Shown in pieces: positions 731 through 26,716 of a DNA stretch of 33,411 nucleotides. The DNA comes from a virus (Duplodnaviria > Caudoviricetes): positions 1-33,411 of the IMG/VR virus record IMGVR_UViG_3300037851_000560; one strand, written 5' to 3'. A program made the position numbers and the translations under genes. Positions within the stretch are counted from its first letter, which is position 1. Each line of letters opens with the position of its first letter. The notes beneath the pieces were generated by a model. It searched no databases. It had not been told where the DNA came from and worked only from the letters and a program-made list of their open reading frames with translations.

Positions 731-1636
731 CTACTTCGTGTCGTCCTTCGACTCGACGACCGCACCGGCCGTGAACGACGCGAGCGACAGCCCGGCCGCG
801 GCCGGCGAGCCGCCGTCGATCGCCTGCTGTACCTCGGTGGGCAGCATGAGTTCCTGCCCGACGCCAGCCTCCGCGAGTTCGTCGAGCGCGATCGCCTGCT
901 GCAACGACGGGCGCTCGACCGCGCGCGGGGCGAGCTTGGCGGCCTTGCGGATGACCGTCTTGAGTGCCATCGCGTCGAAGTTCGACGCCCACACGCTGTC
1001 GGCTCCCTCGCGGCCGTACTTCTCGCGGTGCTGCTGCACCTCGCTCACCCACATGAAGGCGCGGCGGCGACCGCCGTTCTTCATCTCGATGATCGCGTAG
1101 TAGGCGACGGCCGGCCCCGGGTCGAGCGCCTCCTTCTCGGCGGCCGTGAGCTTCGCGCCCTCGACGACCTTCGCCAGCAACTCGACGGGCGGGACGTAGG
1201 GGACGTGCTTGATCGCCTCGGTGTCGCCGCGCGTGAACTCGATCGTGTCCTTCGCGTGGACGACGACCTCGGAGAGCGAGGCGATCTGCTCGCTCTCCCA
1301 CATGAGCTTGACGAGCCCCTTGTAGCCGACGACCAGCGTGGCCTCGACCGTGCCCTTGCGGCGGTTGTTGAACGGCAGGATGAACGCCTCGCCGAGGTGC
1401 CCGCCGATCTCCAGCCCGATCTGAGCCGCCGTGAAGACGGCCCCGAGGAAGGACTGCGGGTTGCACTCCAGCAGCTTCGGGTTGCGGCGGATCTCCGTCA
1501 GCACGACGCGCGAGAAGCGGTCCGCGTCCATCGAGCGCGGCAGCGCCGCGCGCAGCTGCGGCTTCAGCTTCTCCAGCGTCGCGATCATCTTCTCGTCCGG
1601 CTTCACCAGCGCCTTCTCCGTCTTCGTCTCGCTCAT
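731..1636 (-). CDS. recT: RecT-family ssDNA annealing recombinase
   Basis: Motifs LRAALPRSMDADRFSRVVLTEIRRNPKLLECNPQSFLGAV, GLE..GHLGEAFILPF, VGYKGL and W..NFDAMALKTVIR; AAGGAG RBS. Confidence 0.95.
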   Translation of the reverse strand: MSETKTEKALVKPDEKMIATLEKLKPQLRAALPRSMDADRFSRVVLTEIRRNPKLLECNPQSFLGAVFTAAQIGLEIGGHLGEAFILPFNNRRKGTVEATLVVGYKGLVKLMWESEQIASLSEVVVHAKDTIEFTRGDTEAIKHVPYVPPVELLAKVVEGAKLTAAEKEALDPGPAVAYYAIIEMKNGGRRRAFMWVSEVQQHREKYGREGADSVWASNFDAMALKTVIRKAAKLAPRAVERPSLQQAIALDELAEAGVGQELMLPTEVQQAIDGGSPAAAGLSLASFTAGAVVESKDDTK

Positions 1637-1675
1637 GTCTCTCCTTCGCGCCTCATCGGCGCATCCTCTCCCGTG

Positions 1676-2164
1676 TTATGCGTTCGCCGGCAGCGCGACC
1701 GCAGAGCGAAGCGTCTTGAGCCTTCGCCCAAACGCGCGAAGCTCGTCGGCGTAGCCGAACGCCTGCGCGAGCCGCTCGACGCGCGCGACGTGTCCCTCCA
1801 GCTGCCCGATCTCGTACAGCAGGAGGTCGCGCTGCTCGCGCTCCGACAGTTTGTGCGTCAGCCTGAACCCGGGAACCTGCGGCGGTAGGCTCGTGTCGCG
1901 CACGGCGAGCGGGACGAGCACCGTAGTCTCCCCGCGCTTGAACTCGACGCTCACCTCGTCGATGAGTTGCCGCGCCTGCTGGACACGAAAGGAGTGTCCG
2001 GCCACCGCGTCGTCCCACTCGAAGTATTCGTGCGCCGGATGCTCCGGGTTCGCAGCGCGAAGGACGATCTGCTCGGCCTTCGCGCGCCCGTCCACGTCTG
2101 CGACCTCCATGTAGGTGGCGACCTTCACCTCGTGGGTGATCCGCCGCCGCTGCTTCTTTTCCAT
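1676..2164 (-). CDS. Conserved phage protein (HxYFEWDDxxA motif); candidate accessory of the RAMP-array module
   Basis: Start reassigned to ATG 2164 (MEKKQRRR) after GAAAGGAG. Contains AANPEHPAHEYFEWDDAVAGHSFRVQQARQLI. Its RBS abuts the last array unit. Confidence 0.8.
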   Translation of the reverse strand: MEKKQRRRITHEVKVATYMEVADVDGRAKAEQIVLRAANPEHPAHEYFEWDDAVAGHSFRVQQARQLIDEVSVEFKRGETTVLVPLAVRDTSLPPQVPGFRLTHKLSEREQRDLLLYEIGQLEGHVARVERLAQAFGYADELRAFGRRLKTLRSAVALPANA

Positions 2165-2180
2165 CGACGACTCCTTTCTC

Positions 2181-2811
2181 TTGACCGCCGTGCCTTGACC
2201 CGCCCGGCCGCGCCTCTCCAGACCTTGACCGCCCCGCCGCGCCATGACTGGCCCCGATCAGGCTGCGCCCCGCCTCTCCAAACCTTGACCGCCCCGCCGC
2301 GCCTCGCGCCTGACCCGCCAGACCTTGACACATCAAGCCTCGACCGCCCCGCCGCGCCTCGACACGCCTGACCCGGACCAGACTCGCCCGGACCGCCTTG
2401 CCCGGCCTAAGCCCGCCTGACCCGGACCAAGACTCGCCCGGACCGCCTCACCCGGACTCGTCGCGCCTTCCCGATCCAAACCGCGACTCGCCTCGACCGG
2501 CATGCCTCACCCGGACTCGACACGCCGTGCCCGGCCCCGCCTGACCCTGCCCTGCCCTGACCGCCTCGCCATGACACGTCTCGCCCAGCGATCGATCCCC
2601 AGCGCAGCGACGACCGCCAGGCCCTGCCCGACCACCGACAAAGCACGCCATGGCACTCCTAGCCTAGACCGCCGCGCCGGGCCGGAACGCGACTCGCCTT
2701 ACCGCGACCCGCCAAGCCTCGACCGCCGCGACCCGCCATGACCGCCAAGCCCTGCCAGACCGAGACGCAGCGAGCCATGGCGCTCCTAGCCGTCCTCGAC
2801 CGCCTTGACCC
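2181..2811 (-). ncRNA. Non-coding array of NN-GGY pentamers delimited by GGCGGTC; putative guide-RNA array (VIPR vrRNA-like)
   Basis: + strand GACCGCC at 2183, 2227, 2287, 2342, 2391, 2441, 2495 (variant), 2559, 2612, 2667, 2721, 2740 and 2798. Spacings are 44,60,55,49,50,54,64,53,55,54,19,58, i.e. 5n+4 within 1 nt. The sequence between motifs has 5-nt periodicity. Confidence 0.75.
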
Positions 2812-3585
2812 TTACGCCGCCTTGTCGTTGAAGCCGCGACGCTGCTTCTCGTCGGCGAAGTAGCGCAACAGCTCGGCCGTCGGCGCGAGCCCGTCCCACG
2901 GCTCGGGCTCGCGCATCGCGACCTCCTGCGCCTTGCGGCCGAACTTCTGGAGCGCGACGAACTCTGGATCCTTCGGCGAGACGATCTTGAACTGGCCGAA
3001 CGACCCCTTACCCTTCTGCGGGCGGAAGTCGCCGACGCCGCGCAAGCGGCCGGCACCGACGAGGAGGTTCGCGAGCGTCGTCTCCTTCAGCATGTTGGTC
3101 GCGTAGCGGATCGTGAAGCGCGACGCCCACTGAAGGCACACCGCGCGCGTGCGCACGTCCGGCGTCCGCGCCATGTCCTGCAAGCGCACGCCGGCGCAGC
3201 AGATCAGCGGCACGCCCCACACCGGGACGATGTAGCCCTCGACCCACGTCAGGCGCGCGATCTGCGCCTTCCGCGCGTCGCCCGGCATGTCGAGCGCCAC
3301 GTCGGACAGCGCGCTCTTGAATGCCGGCGCGGGCAGCGCGAGCAGTGTCTGGCTCTTGGGGTCGTCGAACTGGTAGATCGACGAGCGAAACTCCTCGAAG
3401 GGGTCGTGCTTCAGCGTCGACTCCTTCTCGGCCTTGTTCTTCTTCGGCTTCGGCGCGAGCAGGTCGCGCAGCGCCTTGGCCGACATCGAGTTGAACAGCA
3501 GCGGCGACGTGCCGACCACGCACACGTCAGCCGATCCCTCCTCCAGCTTCACGACCTTGATCTCGGTCGACTTCTCGTTCTTCAT
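2812..3585 (-). CDS. Stand-alone Cas7/RAMP-like protein (Vipr-like)
   Basis: RAMP signatures: first strand VCVVGTSPLLFN, LALPAPAFKSAL (compare IPGSSLKGALR), and C-terminal Gly-loop GAGRLRGVGDFRPQKGKGSFGQFKIV. Its stop codon is immediately followed by the array. Confidence 0.75.
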   Translation of the reverse strand: MKNEKSTEIKVVKLEEGSADVCVVGTSPLLFNSMSAKALRDLLAPKPKKNKAEKESTLKHDPFEEFRSSIYQFDDPKSQTLLALPAPAFKSALSDVALDMPGDARKAQIARLTWVEGYIVPVWGVPLICCAGVRLQDMARTPDVRTRAVCLQWASRFTIRYATNMLKETTLANLLVGAGRLRGVGDFRPQKGKGSFGQFKIVSPKDPEFVALQKFGRKAQEVAMREPEPWDGLAPTAELLRYFADEKQRRGFNDKAA

Positions 3586-3613
3586 CGTTCCTCTCCCTCT
3601 CCCTTTGCGGCGT

Positions 3614-4504
3614 CTATCGCTTGCGCCCGAGCGCGAACTTGCACTCGGTCCAGTACTCGCAGAACTTCTCGCTGCACCACCACGCGTCCGGGTTCGCGGG
3701 CACGAACGCGCCGGCCTCGACCATGCGGATGCTCGCGTCGATCCTCGCGGCGACTGCGTTGAGATCCTCGAGCGAGCGCGTCCCCGTCTGCGTCACCGTC
3801 ACGACGCCCTGCCGCGAGTTGACGAGCGTCGTCAGGCGCACGCGGTCGGGCGGCTTCCCCGTCTGCGCCGCGCGCAGCAGGGAGTACATCGTCAACTGCT
3901 GATTGGAGCCGATCGCGTCCTCGCGGGGGCGCTTGTCGCTCGTCTTGAGGTCGTGGACGACCTCGATGGTGACGCCCCTCACGCGGCGCTCGGGCTCCTC
4001 GGCGAACGGGTCGAGGGCCGGCGCGGGCTCCTCGCCGACAAGGTCGATGATTCCGAGGATCTCGACGTCGAGCCCGGCGGGCTTGATCGTCAGCGAGCGC
4101 TCGACCGCCAGCGGGTCGACGCCGCGCGCGACCTTGCCGACGTAGTAGCCCGCCATCCTCACCGCGGTGTCCTTCTCCTCGCCGGCCACCTTCTCGACGC
4201 CGATCTCCTTCTCGGCGTCGCTCCACGCGACGCCGTACTCCTTGACCGAGTGGTCGAACTCGGTCGCAGCCACGTCCTTCGCCTCCTCGTCCGACAGCAC
4301 GGCGTCGATGTAGACCTCGCGCGGGTCGCCGCGCTCCTTGCCGGCCAGCTGCCGCACGTGCGACTTGCCGGCGACCTTGTGGACGGCGATGCCGCGCTTG
4401 GCGCGGATGCTGCTCGGCCGGAAGTCCCGCTCGATGTACTTGCGGCGGAAGCGCTCGCCGCACTGCTGCGCGGTGTACAGCATCGAGTTCGACCAGCGCC
4501 TCAT
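3614..4504 (-). CDS. PD-(D/E)XK exonuclease, Cas4/AddB/RecB-like, probable 4Fe-4S cluster
   Basis: Start at ATG 4504 after GGAGG. Motifs SNSML..C, GIAVH, ILGIIDL, VHDLKTS, QLTMY and C-terminal WCSEKFCEYWTEC (1+3 Cys arrangement). Confidence 0.85.
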   Translation of the reverse strand: MRRWSNSMLYTAQQCGERFRRKYIERDFRPSSIRAKRGIAVHKVAGKSHVRQLAGKERGDPREVYIDAVLSDEEAKDVAATEFDHSVKEYGVAWSDAEKEIGVEKVAGEEKDTAVRMAGYYVGKVARGVDPLAVERSLTIKPAGLDVEILGIIDLVGEEPAPALDPFAEEPERRVRGVTIEVVHDLKTSDKRPREDAIGSNQQLTMYSLLRAAQTGKPPDRVRLTTLVNSRQGVVTVTQTGTRSLEDLNAVAARIDASIRMVEAGAFVPANPDAWWCSEKFCEYWTECKFALGRKR

Positions 4505-4698
4505 GGTGCCTCCCATAGCGCCTCGGTGCTGCGGCGCTCGATCTCGTGGTAGTCGTCGTCGGTGATTGCGGTGGCGCAGGGCGCGCCGACGTTGAGCATC
4601 GTCGTCAGCGCGATGCGCCGCGCCTCCTCGATGGTGTCGGCGAACGCGACCGTCACCGGCGGATAGCGGCCCTCTTCGAGCCGCACGCGCAGTCTCAT
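4501..4698 (-). CDS. Hypothetical protein (65 aa)
   Basis: MRLRVRLEEG...; ATGA overlaps with both neighbours. Confidence 0.6.
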   Translation of the reverse strand: MRLRVRLEEGRYPPVTVAFADTIEEARRIALTTMLNVGAPCATAITDDDYHEIERRSTEALWEAP

Positions 4699-4913
4699 GG
4701 GCAGTCCTCCCCGTCGATAATCCGGCAGCTCTCCCAATCAATGTCGGCCGGATCGCAGCCGGCATCGCGGACGATCCTCTCAGCGAACCCACGCACGTCT
4801 TCTCCGTAGGGGTGCGCGAACATGAAGCACTCCGCGCCGTCGTCCATCTGGATGACGTGCCCGCAGCAGCCAGTCTCGCAGCCATACGCGGTGTGATAGA
4901 CGACGACTCTCAT
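4695..4913 (-). CDS. Hypothetical Cys-rich protein (72 aa)
   Basis: MRVVVYHTAYGCETGCCGH...; ATGA coupling. Confidence 0.65.
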   Translation of the reverse strand: MRVVVYHTAYGCETGCCGHVIQMDDGAECFMFAHPYGEDVRGFAERIVRDAGCDPADIDWESCRIIDGEDCP

Positions 4914-5176
4914 GCCCTTGCTCCGGGCGCGCACTCGGGGCCGTAGGTCACCTTCCCGTTGCGCCCGAGAAGCACGCGCTGCACCGTGAAGTCGCCGCTC
5001 ATCGGAAGCGCGGCGAGGTCGCCGCAGTAGAGCGAGCAGACGAGCCCTGACTCCTTGAGCCGGATGAGCCAGCAGGGGCGGTCGGTGCCGTCGAACAGCC
5101 GGCGCAGGAACCACCTCTCGATCGCGTCCAGCGGCGGCGGCTTGTGCGGGTTGACGGGGCGGCAGTCGGGCGGCAT
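4910..5176 (-). CDS. Hypothetical protein (88 aa)
   Basis: MPPDCRPVNP...; TGATG coupling to the HTH gene. Confidence 0.55.
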   Translation of the reverse strand: MPPDCRPVNPHKPPPLDAIERWFLRRLFDGTDRPCWLIRLKESGLVCSLYCGDLAALPMSGDFTVQRVLLGRNGKVTYGPECAPGARA

Positions 5177-5424
5177 CAGCGCAGCTTCACAGTGCGCTTC
5201 AGCAGCCCGTCGCGCTCTTTGCTCGGAACGCGCTGCGAGAGCAGAACGGCGAGCCCGTCCACGCGGTGCGCCGGCATGGCCCGCAAGCCCGTCTCCCACA
5301 GGCAGATCGTCGTTGGGTTGACCCCAAGGCGCGCCGCCATCTGTTCCTGCGTGAGCCTGAAGAAACTTCGGACGCGGCGAAGCAGCGCCCCGCGTTCCGT
5401 CTGTGGCTTCTTGAGCTTCGGCAT
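5176..5424 (-). CDS. XRE/Cro-like helix-turn-helix regulator
   Basis: LRRVRSFFRLTQEQMAARLGVNPTTICLWETG matches the HTH_3 pattern; GGAGGAG RBS. Confidence 0.85.
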   Translation of the reverse strand: MPKLKKPQTERGALLRRVRSFFRLTQEQMAARLGVNPTTICLWETGLRAMPAHRVDGLAVLLSQRVPSKERDGLLKRTVKLR

Positions 5425-5443
5425 CTCTCTCTCCTCCCAAACG

Positions 5444-5492
5444 AAAAAAGGGGAGTGAGGCGAGCCGCAGTTGGCTCGCCTCCGCTCCCCTT
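5444..5492 (-). terminator. Rho-independent terminator
   Basis: On -: AAGGGGAGCGGAGGCGAGCC-loop-GGCTCGCCTCACTCCCC followed by TTTTTT, just after the stop at 5501. Confidence 0.8.
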
Positions 5493-5500
5493 GTCAGGTT

Positions 5501-6496
5501 CTACTTCAGCACGACCCGGCGCTGCTGTTCGGTCACCAGCGGCTCGATGATCTCGCGCAGCGAGTCCATCTCGGCGCGCACGCGCTCTGCGGCGCGCTTC
5601 TCCGTGCGCAGCACCTCGGCGTCCACGCCGTTGAGCACGGCGAGCGCCTTGTCGGTGAGCGCCGCGAGTTCCTCGTCGCCTGTGATGTCCTGCAGGCGGT
5701 AGGTCCGCAGGAAGTCGGTCATCTTGTCGAGCGACGCCTGCCGCAGCGTCCTGCGCCGGCCGTCCTCGCCCGGCTTGAGCACGTCGGCCAGCGTGGCCAC
5801 GAACTGCTGGAGCGTCTCGCGGTAGGTCAGGCGGATCGCGTCGAAGTACGCGGCCCACGCCGAGCGCGCCTTCGCGCGCTCGGCCTCGAAGAGCGCGGGG
5901 TTCAGCTTGCGCAGCCGCGTCGGCACGTCGAACTGGAGCCAGCAGTAGCGCGGCATGACCGCCTCGCGGATGCTCGCGAGCGTCGGATAGTCCCGCGGGT
6001 CGAACAGGCCGAGCGGCGTCAGGCGGGCGCGCTCCTCTTCGATGATCGCGTCCCAGCGCGCCTCCAGCGAGTCGAGCAGCGCCGCAATCGCCTCTGACGC
6101 CCGCTTGATCTCGCTCTCGACCCACTCGATGCGGGCAGCGCTGAAGAGGTGCATCCCCCCCTTGAGGAAGGCCTTCGGCTGCGCCGTTCGCCGGATGAGT
6201 GCTCGCGTGGCGATGATCTGCTGGACGATCTGCTGGACCTCGGCGACCTTCAGCAGGTCTTTCGAGATGCGGATCTCGTCGGCCCCGTCGGCCGCGGCCT
6301 CGACCATCTCCTCGGCTGTCTCTGGCGCGCGCTTCTCGCGTTCGCGCTCCTCCTCGATGAGCGCCCCGGCCACCTTCTCGACCTTCTCGCCGCGCACTCG
6401 CGCGTTGCGCTTGATCGAGCCGATGGTGAGGTTGAGCACGAACGAGTTCTCGGTGATCTGCTGCGCCTTCTCGTCGTCCGTCAGCGTCGTGGTCAT
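5501..6496 (-). CDS. DUF3150-like helical protein
   Basis: Start at ATG 6496 (MTTTLTDDEK). Motifs FVLNLTIG, ISKDLL and LGLFDPRDYPT; next to the AAA/DUF1257/DUF2997-like genes. Confidence 0.6.
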   Translation of the reverse strand: MTTTLTDDEKAQQITENSFVLNLTIGSIKRNARVRGEKVEKVAGALIEEEREREKRAPETAEEMVEAAADGADEIRISKDLLKVAEVQQIVQQIIATRALIRRTAQPKAFLKGGMHLFSAARIEWVESEIKRASEAIAALLDSLEARWDAIIEEERARLTPLGLFDPRDYPTLASIREAVMPRYCWLQFDVPTRLRKLNPALFEAERAKARSAWAAYFDAIRLTYRETLQQFVATLADVLKPGEDGRRRTLRQASLDKMTDFLRTYRLQDITGDEELAALTDKALAVLNGVDAEVLRTEKRAAERVRAEMDSLREIIEPLVTEQQRRVVLK

Positions 6497-20675: not shown

Positions 20676-20772
20676 TCTCCCTCGCTGACGACCGCCGGCA
20701 GCGCGAGGCGAGAGCGGCGGGCCACCGCCAAGGATGCTCAGCAGCGCGCGCCGCGCGAGCGCGGGAGGTCCC

Positions 20773-23244
20773 GTGGCCAACTCTTGGCTCACCCGAGCCA
20801 TCGACCGTTTCCGCAAGCCAGCACCCGCTCCCAAGCCTCCATCGAACGAGATCGAAGTCGTCTCGACATTCGTCGCGGGGCGACCCGTGCCGCAGGAGGA
20901 TTGGGATCCGCGCAAGCTCGTCGACGAGGGCTACAGGCGCAACGTCGTCGTCTACTGCTGCGTCAACGAGATCGCCTCTTCGGCCGCAGCGCCGCGCGTG
21001 TACCTGCGCGACCGCAAATCGCAGGAGGAGGTCGAAGAGCACCCGCTGCTCGACCTGCTCGCGCGCCCCGCGCCGGGGCTGTCGTGGTACGAGTTGGTCG
21101 AGACGCTGCTCATCCACCAGCAGACGATCGGCGAGGGCTACCTCCATAAGGGGCGCACGGGGAGCGGCGAGATCGTCGAGTTGAAGCCGGCACGTCCCGA
21201 TCGCATCCAGCCCGTGCCCGACAAGCAGGGCAACGTCCTGTACTACGAGTACCGCATCGAGGGCCAGTCGCCGCAGCGCATCGAGACGGAAGACCTCGCG
21301 CTGTTCAAGCTTCCCGACCCGATCAACGACTTCCACGGCCTGTCGCCCCTCGCGGTCGCGGGGATCTACGGCGACATCGACGCCTCTGCCGCGATATACC
21401 TCCGCGACTTCTTCGCGAACGGCGCGATGCCGATGGGGCTGCTCAAGTTCAAGGTGCCCGCCGTGCGGCGCGAGGATCGGCTGCGCGTGCAGCAGGAGTG
21501 GGCCGAGCAGTACGGCGGCGGCGAGATCACACCGCAGCGCGGGAGCCGCTGGCACAACGTCGGCGTCCTCGGCGGCGACGTGGAGTATCAGGCGATCGCG
21601 AGCGAACCCGCGCAGCTGCGCCTCGACGCCGTGTGGGGCATGACCGAGAGCCGCCTGTGCGCGACGTTCGGCGTGCCGCCGCAGTTGGTGCAGGCGCGCA
21701 TCGGCTTGCAGTACTCGACCTACGCGAACATGCGCGAGGCGCGGCGCTCCTTCTGGACGGAGACGCTCGCGCCGATCTACCGACGCCTCGGCGACGGCAT
21801 GACGCGCACGATCGTTGCCGAGGTCGACGAGAACCTCGAACTGGTCTTCGACCTCGAATCGATCCCCGAGCTTCAGGAGGATCTCAACCAGCGTGCCGAG
21901 CGCGCGACGAAGCTGTTCCTCGGCGGCGTCGCGTCGTTCAACGAGGCGCGTCTGCTGTCGGATCTCGAGGAATCGAAGAGCGACTTCTACGCCTTCCCGG
22001 GCACCGTGACGATGGTGCCGAAGGAGGACGTCGAGAGCGGCAAGTACTTCAAGGAGGCGGCCGACGCCAAGGCCGCAGCGCAGGCCGCGCTGGCGAAGGG
22101 CGCGAAGGACGCCGACGACGGCGGCGAGGGGAAGCCGCCGTTCGGCGGCAAGCCAGACGACGACGACGACGATCAGCAGGCCCTCGGGGAGGGGGCGCGC
22201 GGCCTCCCTTTCGAGGTGCTCGGGCTCGGCTCGCTGCCACCGGAGTCCGAAGCGGAGATCATGCGGGCGGCGACGACGTTGGAGACTGGTTTTTCCGCAG
22301 CGGTGCATGACGCGATAGCGGGGAGCGACGTCGAGGCGCTCGCTGCGGCGATCGAGCGCGGGGACTGGCGCGCGGCCGAGAAGGCGATCGACGTGACCAC
22401 CTACGTCCAGCGTTACGGTGCCGCGCTCGACGAGCACCTTCGTCGCGAGGCGGCCAACGCCATGCAGTTGCACCTGCGTCATCACGAGATCGTGCCGCGC
22501 GAGAAGCACCGCGACGGCTGGGTCACCATCAAGGGCCGGCCCGTTTACATCGGCGACAAGGGGCGCGGCGGTGGCGGGGGCGGCGACGCGCCACGCGCTG
22601 GCGGTGCGTCGCCGGCAGACCTTGAGCCAGCCAGCGGCGCGCCGATGGAACTGAAGCCCTTCTCCTCCTTCGATCCGAAGCTGGGAGGGGCCGATCGCAT
22701 GGCCGCCACCATCGCGTTCACGAAGGCCGTCTACGACGACCCCGCCGTGAAGATCCCGAAGCTCGCGTGGGACGGCGTGAAGGGGCTACAGGTCCGTCTC
22801 GAAGAGGCGTACAAGCCCGGCGTGACGGGCTACTACCAGCCCGACAAGGAGCGCGTCAACATCATCGCGCAGAAGAAGGGGCACCTTTCGCGCAACACGC
22901 CGATTCACGAGCTTGGGCACCACGTCCACATGGCGAAGCTGACGGACGCGGCGCACAACGAGTGGGCAGAGCTCTCGAATGGCGGGAAGGCCTGCAAGAT
23001 CTCCAACTACGGGCGCACGAACACCGGCGAGCACTTCGCCGAGGCCTTCCGCAACTACGCCGACACCGCCGAGCCGAAAGGCAAGCCCGGATTCCTCGCG
23101 CCGCGCGAGTGGCTGAAGAAGCAGGAGCCCGCGACGTACTCGTTCTTCGAGCGGCTCTATTCGGACCCGTCCATGTGGCACGCCAAGGGCAAGCGTGCGC
23201 CTCTGGCCGACGCGAACAAGCGCTACCACGGGAGCAAGGTGTGA
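20773..23244 (+). CDS. HK97-type portal protein with C-terminal zincin metallopeptidase extension
   Basis: GTG start after GGAGG. Portal motifs VYCCVNEIA, HPLLDLLARP, GLSPL, FFANGAMPMG, FGVPPQLV and NEAR. Tail carries HELGHHVH...SNYGRTNTGEHFAEAF. Confidence 0.88.
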   Translation: MANSWLTRAIDRFRKPAPAPKPPSNEIEVVSTFVAGRPVPQEDWDPRKLVDEGYRRNVVVYCCVNEIASSAAAPRVYLRDRKSQEEVEEHPLLDLLARPAPGLSWYELVETLLIHQQTIGEGYLHKGRTGSGEIVELKPARPDRIQPVPDKQGNVLYYEYRIEGQSPQRIETEDLALFKLPDPINDFHGLSPLAVAGIYGDIDASAAIYLRDFFANGAMPMGLLKFKVPAVRREDRLRVQQEWAEQYGGGEITPQRGSRWHNVGVLGGDVEYQAIASEPAQLRLDAVWGMTESRLCATFGVPPQLVQARIGLQYSTYANMREARRSFWTETLAPIYRRLGDGMTRTIVAEVDENLELVFDLESIPELQEDLNQRAERATKLFLGGVASFNEARLLSDLEESKSDFYAFPGTVTMVPKEDVESGKYFKEAADAKAAAQAALAKGAKDADDGGEGKPPFGGKPDDDDDDQQALGEGARGLPFEVLGLGSLPPESEAEIMRAATTLETGFSAAVHDAIAGSDVEALAAAIERGDWRAAEKAIDVTTYVQRYGAALDEHLRREAANAMQLHLRHHEIVPREKHRDGWVTIKGRPVYIGDKGRGGGGGGDAPRAGGASPADLEPASGAPMELKPFSSFDPKLGGADRMAATIAFTKAVYDDPAVKIPKLAWDGVKGLQVRLEEAYKPGVTGYYQPDKERVNIIAQKKGHLSRNTPIHELGHHVHMAKLTDAAHNEWAELSNGGKACKISNYGRTNTGEHFAEAFRNYADTAEPKGKPGFLAPREWLKKQEPATYSFFERLYSDPSMWHAKGKRAPLADANKRYHGSKV

Positions 23245-23459
23245 CCCTCGAAGAGTTCGTCACCGAAGTCCGCAGCGGGAACGTCTCCGTCGAGACGGGC
23301 GGCATGATCGACGGAGACATGGCGACGTGGATCGAGACGCTCGGGACCAACGACGCGGAGGCTGTCGCCGTCGAGGCCTTCGCTCGCGGCGTCATCCCAG
23401 CCGACATGGCGCTCGATGACGCGGTCGCGCGGATCGAGGCGCTGCTGGCGGCAGCATGA
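23241..23459 (+). CDS. Small acidic protein (possible immunity protein)
   Basis: 72 aa, coupled at both ends (GTGA, ATGA). Confidence 0.6.
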   Translation: MTLEEFVTEVRSGNVSVETGGMIDGDMATWIETLGTNDAEAVAVEAFARGVIPADMALDDAVARIEALLAAA

Positions 23460-26400
23460 CGATCGAGGAGCAGGCCCTCCGGCCGAAGTGGCTCGACGCC
23501 ATCGCCTCGCGCGTGAAGCTGGAGATGCGCCGGCTCGACAAGCAGGTGCGCTCCGTCGTGCGCGAGCAGATCCTCAAGGTGATCAGCGGGAAGGCAGAGA
23601 GCATTACCCCGACCGCGATCCTCAACCACATCGGGCTCACCGAGAGCCAGATGGCGACCGTCGAGCGCGCGCGCACGCGCCTGCTCGCCGAAGGCAAGCT
23701 CAAGGGCAAGGCGCTGGAGAAGGATCTCGACAAGCTCCGAGCCAAGCTCCTGCGCGAGCGCGCGAGCCTCATCGCAGAGCATGAGACGCGCATGGCGCAC
23801 GCGCTCGGCCAGCGTGCGGCGTGGGAAAAACTCTTCGCCGACAAGAAGCTGGCGGGCGGGAAGAGGCACTGGCACAAGCTCTGGATCGCCTCCGAGGATG
23901 AGCGAACGTGTGGCGTGTGCATGGATCTCGATGGGCAGGAGGTTCCCGTCGACAGCCTCTTCGACGACTCGTACTACTCGCCCCCGGAGCCGCACCCGCG
24001 GTGCCGCTGCTCCGTTGCGCTGGTGGAGACGACGCCGGGCTGGCGCTCGGAGAAGAGCGCGCTCGTCGACGACGACGTGGAGGAGTTCGCGGGCAAGAAC
24101 ATCGCTGGCGGACACTGGATCACGAAGGACGGCCGAAAGATCCTCATCGGCGGGGACGCCGCCGCGGGCCGCTCCGCTGGCGGCGGCGGCGGCTCGCTGT
24201 CCGACATCACAGAGGGGCCGCCAGAGGCTCCGATCGACCCCGAGAAGGAAGGCTGGAAGATCGTCAAGAAGGGGAAGATCGGCGGGCACTCCGAAGCCAA
24301 CATCTGGGAGGACAAGAACGGCGACCTCTGGTACGTCAAGCGCTCCGACGACTGGACCCAGCAGGCGAACGAGGTCATCGCCGGGAAGCTGTACGCGCTC
24401 GCCGGCATCCCCCACACCGAGACGCGGGCCGCAGTCGTCGGCGGCTCGCCTTGGCTCGCGTCGAAGATGATCTCGCACGCGGGCGACCCGCACCCGAACG
24501 CTGTCGGGCTGCGCGAGGGCTTCGCGACCGACGCGTGGCTGGGCAATTGGGACGTCGCCGGCCTGCACGGCGAGAACACCGTGCTCGGGCCGAAGATGAT
24601 GGCGACGCGCGTCGAGTCTGGCGGCGCTCTGCTCTATCGCGGGATGCAGGGCCTGAAGACCGACACGCAGTTCACCGGGAAGGTGAATGAGATCGACGTC
24701 TTCCGCGGCGGCATCTCGGGCGGTGGCAAGACGAACGACACGGCGACCTACCTCTTCCGCGGCGTCACAGAGGCCGACATCGCGAAGGGCATCCGCGACC
24801 ACGTGCTCGCGATCACGCCGGCCGAGATCTCGAAGGTGGTCACCAAGTACGGCAGCAACATGCCTCCGAACCTGCAGAGCAAAATCATCAACACGCTCAC
24901 GGCCCGGCAGGAGGATCTCAAGGCCAGACTCCCCGACCTCGATGCCGCTGCGAAGGCCGCCGCCAAGTCGGGCGCACCGCCGCCGCCGACCGGGAAGCTG
25001 TTCAACGTGACGCATCAGGTCGTCGCTGGCAACGGGAAAATCCCGCAGGCTCCGCAGCCGGTCGTGGCGACCGCAGCGCAGACGAAGGCGATGAGCGGCG
25101 GCAACTGGGGGATCTCCAACTGGAGCGACCCCAATCATCCGCGCCCCGACGAATTCGGAGCGCCGACCAACCCGAGCAGCATCGCCTACGCCGAAGCCAT
25201 GAAGCGCGCGCAGTCGCGCATCACAAGCTGGAAGCATTGCGCGCAGTCGGAGGGCGCGAAGAAGCTCCGCGTTGCCGCGATCGAGGAGCTTGGCGCGCAG
25301 GGCATGGTCGGAGTCGGGAACACGCCCAAGCCGGCGATCGACTTCACGGACAGGCAGGCCGTGCGCGTGCTCTACATGAAGACGCAGGCCGACCTCGCGG
25401 CCGCAGGCTTCACCAACGACGACCGGCTCGTCCTTGCTCGCGGCCTGAGCTTCCACGGTCCGTCGGGGTCGATGCTCACTGGCCCGGAGGCAAAAGCGAA
25501 GTACACGACGCCGATGGCGCTGGAGGGCTTCTCGACGAACGAGGGCACGGCCGTCGCGTTCAACAACTCGCTGGTGATCAAGAAGGCCGTCCCGCCGTCG
25601 AGCATCCTGTTCTCGTGGCACACCAGCGTCGGCTCGACTGGCGGCTATGCCGGCGAGAAGGAGTACTTCGTCCTGCATGGCCCGAAGTTCGAGCCGCTCG
25701 GCTCGACCTACGAGGGCAAGATCGCAGGCGGCCCGGCGGCGAAGGCCGCCCCGAAGAAGCCGAGCACGTGGTCTGGCCAAGGGCCGCTCGACCTCTCGAA
25801 GCTCGCGGCTGACGCGGGCTTCACCTACAAGGGGCACCAGACCGTCCCGAAGGTCGAGAACACGTCCGTGCTTGGCGGCACGATCAAGGTGCCGAAGCCG
25901 CAGAAGACGTACTCGGGCTCCGGTGGGGCCGACGCGTTCATCGCGAAGTACGGCGGCGAGAAGTACTCGAAGGATCAGTTGAAGGTCGCCTTCGACGTGC
26001 TCGCGAAGGGCGGGACCGTCGCCGAGGCCGCGGCGGCCGGTGCGATCAACAAGAACTCGATGCACGGGATGATTCACCTCGTGAAGCTGAAGTACGGCGG
26101 GGTGAACATCGGCGGCACGACGGTGACCACGAAGGCCGGCTCTGGCGGCGGCGAGACGACGTACACGCCGACGGCCGCGCAGATCTCCTCGGCCGCTGCG
26201 GGGACGCATGCCAGCGCTCCGTTCTCTGGCGTGGCCGCGTCGCCGCCGCCGCCGAAACCGTCGTACCCCGAGGCGCAGCCGCTGAAGCCAGCCGACGCCG
26301 ACTGGTTCTTCGGCAAGGCCGAGGCCGGCATGAGTGTCGGCGGGACCGTCTTCGACAAGGACGTGTACCTGACGAAGGCTGGGACCTACTTCAAGGTTCC

Positions 26401-26716
26401 GGCCGGCCAGCCCGCGCCGACGGGGGCCAAGGTGTCGATGCACCCGCAGAGCGTCGCGAAGTCCATCGCTCTGCAGCAGGCCGGCCAGCCCGAGCCGCCG
26501 AAGACGACGCCGCCGCCAGCGCCGAGCGGCAAGCTGGGAATCGAGGCCTACATGAAGAAGTACGGCAGCACCAAGTACTCGCCCGCGCAGATTCAGGCGC
26601 TGCTGTCGCTGAAGGCCTCGGGCATGAGCGACGCGGCCGTCGCCAAGCAGCTCGGCATCCCGGTGAACACGGTGCACGGCATCTCGTGGAAGGCGAAGAA
26701 CAAGGGGTACATCTGA
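23456..26716 (+). CDS. MuF (head morphogenesis) protein with kinase-like, ART-like and HTH domains
   Basis: MuF motifs RASLIAEHE, KLWIASEDERTCGVC and PPEPHPRCRC. Then YVK..NE..DAWLGNWD, LARGL..FST..EKEY and two HTH-like repeats. Confidence 0.85.
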   Translation: MTIEEQALRPKWLDAIASRVKLEMRRLDKQVRSVVREQILKVISGKAESITPTAILNHIGLTESQMATVERARTRLLAEGKLKGKALEKDLDKLRAKLLRERASLIAEHETRMAHALGQRAAWEKLFADKKLAGGKRHWHKLWIASEDERTCGVCMDLDGQEVPVDSLFDDSYYSPPEPHPRCRCSVALVETTPGWRSEKSALVDDDVEEFAGKNIAGGHWITKDGRKILIGGDAAAGRSAGGGGGSLSDITEGPPEAPIDPEKEGWKIVKKGKIGGHSEANIWEDKNGDLWYVKRSDDWTQQANEVIAGKLYALAGIPHTETRAAVVGGSPWLASKMISHAGDPHPNAVGLREGFATDAWLGNWDVAGLHGENTVLGPKMMATRVESGGALLYRGMQGLKTDTQFTGKVNEIDVFRGGISGGGKTNDTATYLFRGVTEADIAKGIRDHVLAITPAEISKVVTKYGSNMPPNLQSKIINTLTARQEDLKARLPDLDAAAKAAAKSGAPPPPTGKLFNVTHQVVAGNGKIPQAPQPVVATAAQTKAMSGGNWGISNWSDPNHPRPDEFGAPTNPSSIAYAEAMKRAQSRITSWKHCAQSEGAKKLRVAAIEELGAQGMVGVGNTPKPAIDFTDRQAVRVLYMKTQADLAAAGFTNDDRLVLARGLSFHGPSGSMLTGPEAKAKYTTPMALEGFSTNEGTAVAFNNSLVIKKAVPPSSILFSWHTSVGSTGGYAGEKEYFVLHGPKFEPLGSTYEGKIAGGPAAKAAPKKPSTWSGQGPLDLSKLAADAGFTYKGHQTVPKVENTSVLGGTIKVPKPQKTYSGSGGADAFIAKYGGEKYSKDQLKVAFDVLAKGGTVAEAAAAGAINKNSMHGMIHLVKLKYGGVNIGGTTVTTKAGSGGGETTYTPTAAQISSAAAGTHASAPFSGVAASPPPPKPSYPEAQPLKPADADWFFGKAEAGMSVGGTVFDKDVYLTKAGTYFKVPAGQPAPTGAKVSMHPQSVAKSIALQQAGQPEPPKTTPPPAPSGKLGIEAYMKKYGSTKYSPAQIQALLSLKASGMSDAAVAKQLGIPVNTVHGISWKAKNKGYI

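Follow-up and report, generated by a model that had tools for sequence, protein, structure and literature searches.

The window analysed in this study, a 33.4-kb partial phage genome from a virus record, carries a VIPR locus. Its array is probably co-transcribed with early genes and processed into some 11 guides of 45-65 nt, which are predicted to steer Vipr filaments to the DNA of rival phages or mobile elements and repress their genes. VIPR is an RNA-guided system described in preprints of 2026. The staggered vrRNA array was described by Yoon et al. 2026 (10.64898/2026.04.26.720920). The locus comprises three parts on the minus strand, in the following order:

2812..3585, minus strand: vipr gene encoding P0001, a 257-aa stand-alone RAMP (Cas7-like) protein
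2183..2811, minus strand: putative staggered vrRNA-type array of 107 pentamers (a dinucleotide, NN, plus a triplet) with 13 boundary words and without tails between units
2171..2176, minus strand: AAGGAG, a ribosome-binding-site-like word seen in the sequence ahead of the partner gene, 6 nt past the last boundary word
1676..2164, minus strand: putative vap-type partner gene, 162 aa, of an unnamed viral family

The plus strand of the contig holds terminase, portal, head, holin and tail-fibre genes, which give the locus the phage location that is typical of VIPR, and the minus strand holds RecT, an exonuclease, an HTH gene and an AAA ATPase. The first two of these were considered as parts of the system and rejected, with 0 matches in 80 viral loci; an exonuclease does occur in the related locus L081, and RecT in L082. 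The portal protein (20734-23244, plus strand) is extended to 836 aa and has a weak C-terminal Pfam match to ATLF (PF07737; 28.1 bits against a cut-off of 27.4). A 1086-aa protein (23456-26716, plus strand) has an N-terminal Mu F head-morphogenesis domain followed by approximately 870 residues without a Pfam match. A purine-rich hexamer repeat at 15-115 of the plus strand encodes a Pro-Ser/Pro-Thr linker in a minus-strand ORF (1-630) that runs off the contig start and had no family match; such linkers are typical of phage replication initiators.

The whole stretch is present in one sequencing run, which is possibly its source. A 248-nt contig from a second run of a different study (depth 2.8) was identical to 2252-2499 with zero differences, a match that makes an assembly artefact less likely there. 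Both runs are labelled freshwater metagenome, a label that comes mainly from the possible source run.

A non-coding array with a five-base period

Minus-strand identity at lag 5 over 2170-2811 was 0.458 versus 0.332 in 1000 dinucleotide-preserving shuffles (z 7.3), and harmonics appeared at lag 10 (z 6.4) and lag 15 (z 4.9) in the same shuffle test. A window-wide scan confined the 5-nt signal to approximately 2100-2900, with scores of up to 0.57 there and at most 0.14 elsewhere. The 5-nt period proposed in an earlier sequence-only reading was therefore borne out by autocorrelation and is unique to the array within the window. Moreover, the pentamer parse ran unbroken from 2793 to 2187, and the two stretches offered as examples in that reading, 2720-2671 and 2226-2187, parsed exactly as given. 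The 13 boundary motifs that it had counted were recovered between 2804 and 2183 as 12 exact copies of GGCGGTC and one GCCGGTC, with 9 same-strand words across the other 32.8 kb. These words split the minus strand from 2797 to 2183 into 12 units of 19-64 nt:

2740..2797, minus strand: unit 1, 58 nt, paralogue of unit 4
2721..2739, minus strand: unit 2, 19 nt, 3 pentamers, likely too short for a guide
2667..2720, minus strand: unit 3, 54 nt, 10 pentamers, in register
2612..2666, minus strand: unit 4, 55 nt, one base extra
2559..2611, minus strand: unit 5, 53 nt, the most degenerate unit
2495..2558, minus strand: unit 6, 64 nt, 12 pentamers, in register
2441..2494, minus strand: unit 7, 54 nt, 10 pentamers, in register, 3' part common to unit 6
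2391..2440, minus strand: unit 8, 50 nt, one base extra, paralogue of unit 9
2342..2390, minus strand: unit 9, 49 nt, 9 pentamers, in register
2287..2341, minus strand: unit 10, 55 nt, 3' half similar to unit 9
2227..2286, minus strand: unit 11, 60 nt, one base extra
2183..2226, minus strand: unit 12, 44 nt, 8 pentamers, in register

The suggested unit length of 5n+4 held exactly in six of the 12 units; two measured 5n+3 and four 5n. The 107 parsed pentamers carried the triplets GGC (54), GTC (18), GGT (11) and GGA (6), among others. The triplet had been described as nearly constant, a description that was too strong, since GGY made up only 61% and the remaining 39% included GTC as the second commonest triplet (18/107). 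The entropies of the five pentamer positions were 1.86, 1.99, 0.15, 1.35 and 1.16 bits, the parser itself favouring the leading G, and all 16 NN dinucleotides were present.

The array is flanked on the minus strand by the 257-aa gene, whose stop lies 1 nt ahead of it, and by the 162-aa gene, which begins 18 nt past its end; it occupies the space between them and is non-coding. It is overlapped by short ORFs of 67-79 aa, as would be expected if the region encoded a low-complexity protein. That reading is refuted by the 2-8 stops in every one of the six frames, and codon bias is absent from the array frames (GC3 0.69-0.76 versus 0.87-0.98 in four flanking genes). The period, moreover, is 5 rather than 3. 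No Rfam element matched in the array, and neither a sigma-70-like promoter nor a minus-strand terminator was found in 1500-5600. Folding of the whole array gave a z of -3.1, a value that rests on 20 shuffles and that internal repeats can bias.

A Vipr homologue beside the array

P0001 had 293 homologues and no match in Pfam, PADLOC or NCBIfam. Its best PDB match was the Vipr of Escherichia phage SUSP1 (36pp), at E 0.032 for the single sequence and 9e-6 for a profile of 116 homologues, of which it was the sole significant PDB sequence match. Alignment of this profile with the SUSP1 gene by hhalign gave a prob of 95.8 and an E of 7e-9 over 51 columns, the sequence match being limited to about 50 C-terminal residues. 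The structure model (pLDDT 91.8) found its best folds among Csm3/Cmr4/Cas7 subunits by two methods (best Z 9.7, rmsd 4.2, 150 aligned), and the best 23 structural matches were all CRISPR RAMP entries. SUSP1 Vipr was in neither set of structural matches; the Foldseek library covers entries up to 8 April 2026.

In the accessible part of the SUSP1 preprint (10.64898/2026.04.26.720927), R138, D177, W178 and R179 are reported as contacts of the guide triplet. These residues align to R147, D186, F187 and R188 of P0001, and the four positions are kept in 116, 114, 105 (W or F) and 116 of the 116 homologues, respectively. Judged by its sequence and its predicted structure, P0001 is a Vipr homologue, a stand-alone RAMP modelled with an RRM core, a thumb and a glycine-rich loop.

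Partner gene and linkage in related loci

The partner belongs to phrog_15946, for which no function is annotated. Its model was mainly helical (pLDDT 88) with PDB matches to helical bundles only; a word-indexed protein search returned the partner itself alone, and Pfam gave no consistent family. A partner homologue was present in 77 of 80 viral vipr loci, and in 104 of 120 loci it lay beside vipr on the same strand within 1.5 kb. Distant homologues of vipr and the partner also co-occur in Gordonia phages (Pipp, UmaThurman; IMG/VR and GenBank matches H1-H35), and 27 Mycobacterium phage records matched the partner without a vipr match at the sensitivity used.

The array showed similar linkage. 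A same-strand GGY pentamer tract lay within 1.5 kb of vipr in 76 of 80 viral loci, an opposite-strand tract was found in 2 of 81, and an array accompanied 33 of 38 cellular-genome loci under a stricter parser. The array usually follows the partner homologue; it stands between both genes in 16 of 120 loci. The nearest fetched relative (L081; Vipr 69% identical) has the same gene order and boundary word as the window with different NN. In L082 (6098-6393), a related array uses GGA rather than GGY as its dominant triplet and spells the step GGC-G-GTA. L002 (5827-6302) contains exact multi-unit duplications, letter for letter, an expansion via block copying.

A four-base step between units

Steps in the best arrays (62 of 82 loci), counted with short and long steps penalised equally, comprised 4483 of five bases, 444 of four and 29 of six. 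The four-base steps were spaced at a median of 9 pentamers, and 72% of 569 gaps fell at 7-13 versus 27% if random. Each has a single variable base where a normal pentamer has two. The spelling tends to be locus-specific: of 52 loci, 30 have mainly GGCAGGC and 6, the window among them, mainly GGCGGTC. Because most relatives spell the step differently, the boundary, which had been taken for a fixed 7-nt site, is better described as a pentamer one base short (GGC-N-triplet).

Instead of being cut, the array might persist as one long RNA or as part of an mRNA, in which the 4-nt steps only reset the register for separate filaments. No tail, ribozyme or Rfam element lies between the units, where SUSP1 does have non-repeat tails; moreover, no dedicated nuclease gene accompanies the locus, and the array closely adjoins a gene on either side, lying 1 nt past one stop and 18 nt short of the next start. 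On the other hand, the figure legend in the accessible part of the discovery preprint (10.64898/2026.04.26.720920) describes individually processed vrRNAs at 1-nt overlapping positions. In addition, the unit size fits the 9-16 repeats of known single guides, and GGC precedes the step in 94% of 219 clean units, as would a recognised end. An uncut array is thus considered unlikely.

Information in the dinucleotides and searches for targets

The NN are reported to pair with DNA, one target base, usually the wobble base, being skipped per repeat (10.64898/2026.04.26.720920). With such a skip at the wobble, NN frequencies should mirror codon positions 1-2. The 4778 NN of the relatives, drawn from 585 unique units that included those of the window, correlated with sense codon positions 1-2 of 407 nearby ORFs at a Spearman coefficient of 0.88, versus 0.19 with bulk dinucleotides and -0.20 to 0.49 with five other registers. 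A mixture fit assigned 62% to sense positions 1-2, 38% to a uniform component and zero to the others. For the 58 NN of the window itself, the codon signal (0.61) was not discriminated from bulk composition (0.59). The codon-like NN spectrum in relatives is indirect support for a one-base-skip code. The core of the sequence-only reading, namely a scaffold with the information in the NN, about 12 guides and a gapped target code, was supported, as it coincides with the published VIPR grammar and the gene upstream of the array is a Vipr homologue. The reading itself did not name the system.

These data also bear on a neutral minisatellite or a DNA-level repeat, such as an origin or a protein-binding site, unrelated to guide RNAs. 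Duplicated blocks are common to several units and recombination genes lie nearby, as such a repeat would have it. Against it stand the strict strand and position linkage to the RAMP gene in relatives, an NN entropy close to the maximum (3.5-3.9 of 4 bits) and an NN spectrum that resembles codons, by which this reading is largely excluded and is left with a very small probability.

Exact one-skip searches of viral_contigs with 20 bases each of units 3 and 7, and with 18 bases from the 3' part of unit 6, gave 0 matches. Seeds of 16 bases from units 1, 9 and 12 gave 19, 34 and 6 matches, about the chance expectation, which fell in 11, 28 and 5 unrelated clusters, and seed extension brought chance-level gains (unit 1 best 19/20; unit 9 two at 18/18). 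These collection scans covered units 1, 3, 6, 7, 9 and 12. Self-targeting by the five in-register units on their own contig, at skips of 0-3, did not rise above 100 shuffles. Furthermore, 399 guides had no one-skip match of at least 90% in 2.5 Mb of fetched loci, where shuffles gave 3-4, and a smaller run agreed. A guide of L088, a Paraburkholderia prophage locus, was absent at up to 3 mismatches from sets of 2 and 301 genomes. These blanks weigh little, because the viral scans were confined to exact matches and no single host is indicated, the closest cellular-genome relatives being 34-48% identical and spread over many phyla.

At the 19 seed matches of unit 1 (2744-2793; L122-L140, 11 clusters), the opposite-strand wobble frame reads L-[SR]-[DE]-A-[DE]-[IM]-A-Y, a peptide that sits in open frames of 94-207 codons. 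In L130 and L135 the peptide runs into a LAGLIDADG-like motif. Unit 1 may be an antisense-oriented guide, the number of its matches being at chance level.

The empty target searches could also reflect decay, in which the protein genes remain intact while most guides have drifted through duplication and slippage and their targets have been lost. Six of the 12 units are out of register, 39% of the triplets are not GGY, and blocks are shared between units 1/4, 6/7, 8/9 and 9/10. However, neither gene is disrupted and codon bias is normal in both, and five units of 8-12 pentamers have kept the register. Similarly mixed triplets occur in L081 and so look like a trait of the clade, and missing targets are to be expected in searches made without the host and its other viruses. 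Decay of the array as a whole is accordingly improbable.

Comparison with known systems

At the level of sequence, the locus corresponds to the VIPR definition: it combines a RAMP protein, non-coding pentamers hypervariable at NN (61% GGY) and a partner gene, and it lies on a phage without a CRISPR array. As published, a minimal locus pairs vipr with an accessory gene of the vap series (vap1-6), and the repeat consensus is YNNGG (GGY/NN) in four or more tandem copies, with related consensus allowed (10.64898/2026.04.26.720920), and the accessible part of another preprint reports non-canonical triplets in 21 clusters (10.64898/2026.10.21.760802). In our literature search, 'staggered' and 'vrRNA' occurred together only in 10.64898/2026.04.26.720920. 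Set against the text of that preprint and the legend of its fig. S18, as far as they are accessible, the array of the window matches the staggered architecture at the level of sequence, its predicted guides abutting with an overlap of 1 nt and lacking tails or ribozymes. The likeness extends to GGY/NN pentamers, to successive guides without tails and with a one-base register shift, and to a phage-borne stand-alone RAMP accompanied by a single accessory gene. By contrast, the scaffold of the window is more mixed, with GTC as the second commonest triplet, the step is spelled GGC-G-GTC, and the array is placed between vipr and the partner, as in the 16 loci mentioned above.

The type II VIPR of SUSP1 (Vipr, Vap1 and vrRNA1-4; 36pp; 10.64898/2026.04.26.720927) shares the pentamer grammar and, according to the accessible part of its description, the C-terminal thumb/G-loop with the guide-binding residues. 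However, its guides are described there as about 100 nt long with a structured 3' tail and non-repeat separators, and such tails are absent from the unbroken parse of the window. Moreover, P0001 is about 60 aa longer, and the partner has no detectable similarity to the neighbour of vipr in SUSP1, which from its position was taken as vap1; a profile of 86 partners gave a prob of 0.1. For want of tails and of a detectably similar partner, the locus does not appear to be SUSP1-like type II.

The class 1 CRISPR RAMPs (Csm3, Cmr4, Cas7) share the protein fold, whereas identity here is 8-15% and the guide is gapped, not contiguous. Likewise, Pfam, PHROGs, PADLOC and NCBIfam gave no Cas family in those window ORFs that were scanned, and the repeat-spacer array and multi-gene cas operon of class 1 CRISPR-Cas are absent, their place being taken by a pentamer tract. 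With the published VIPR systems as precedent, the locus is a further example of VIPR that leaves the concept unchanged.

Proposed mechanism, guide diversification and significance

In the SUSP1 work, each triplet is held by one Vipr subunit and the NN are displayed, the target being read as two bases with one skipped; binding and silencing have been shown for SUSP1 only. By analogy, the array would be transcribed together with the early genes and coated by Vipr, one subunit per pentamer. The four-base step would break the subunit register, so that each filament ends there, and the exposed junction might be cut by a host RNase or by Vipr. Each filament of protein and a 45-65-nt guide would then bind the dsDNA of a competing phage or mobile element, two bases on and one skipped, and block transcription. 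The partner presumably helps repression, and the targets are probably other viruses. The RNA sequencing in the discovery preprint (10.64898/2026.04.26.720920) confirmed other architectures than staggered arrays. The register slips by one base in half of the units, and several units partly duplicate one another, so that some may be dead. Together with these slips and duplications, the unmatched targets, the 39% of non-GGY triplets and the SUSP1 match of only about 50 residues count against the proposed mechanism; blanket GGY substitutions abolished SUSP1 silencing (10.64898/2026.04.26.720920).

Between units 1 and 4 (2740-2797 and 2612-2666), 9 of 18 NN bases have changed, as against 0 of 27 triplet bases; five of their nine identical triplets are non-GGC (including GGA, GCC, GCT and GTC). 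The contrast gave a Fisher p of 5e-5 for a pair picked post hoc as the best of 66. Such a pattern would point to directed rewriting of the NN or to information in the triplet variants. Other duplicated pairs in the window do show triplet changes, and in a clade-wide check for faster change in NN than in triplets (15 pairs), 14 of 38 non-GGC triplet columns were identical. Ordinary selection on the scaffold could explain the pattern. That new VIPR guides are made by duplication of whole units and then rewritten at NN positions only is a doubtful proposal on present evidence; the accessible text of the VIPR preprints (10.64898/2026.04.26.720920) gives no mechanism of guide acquisition or diversification. 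If the proposal is true, the array records how VIPR guides arise, through duplication and NN-focused change.

In conclusion, VIPR is a compact, programmable and PAM-free DNA-binding class of 2026. Having a mixed triplet scaffold and five guides in register, the 1.9-kb locus lends itself to tests of processing at the 4-nt step, of the tolerance of the scaffold and of the diversification of guides.
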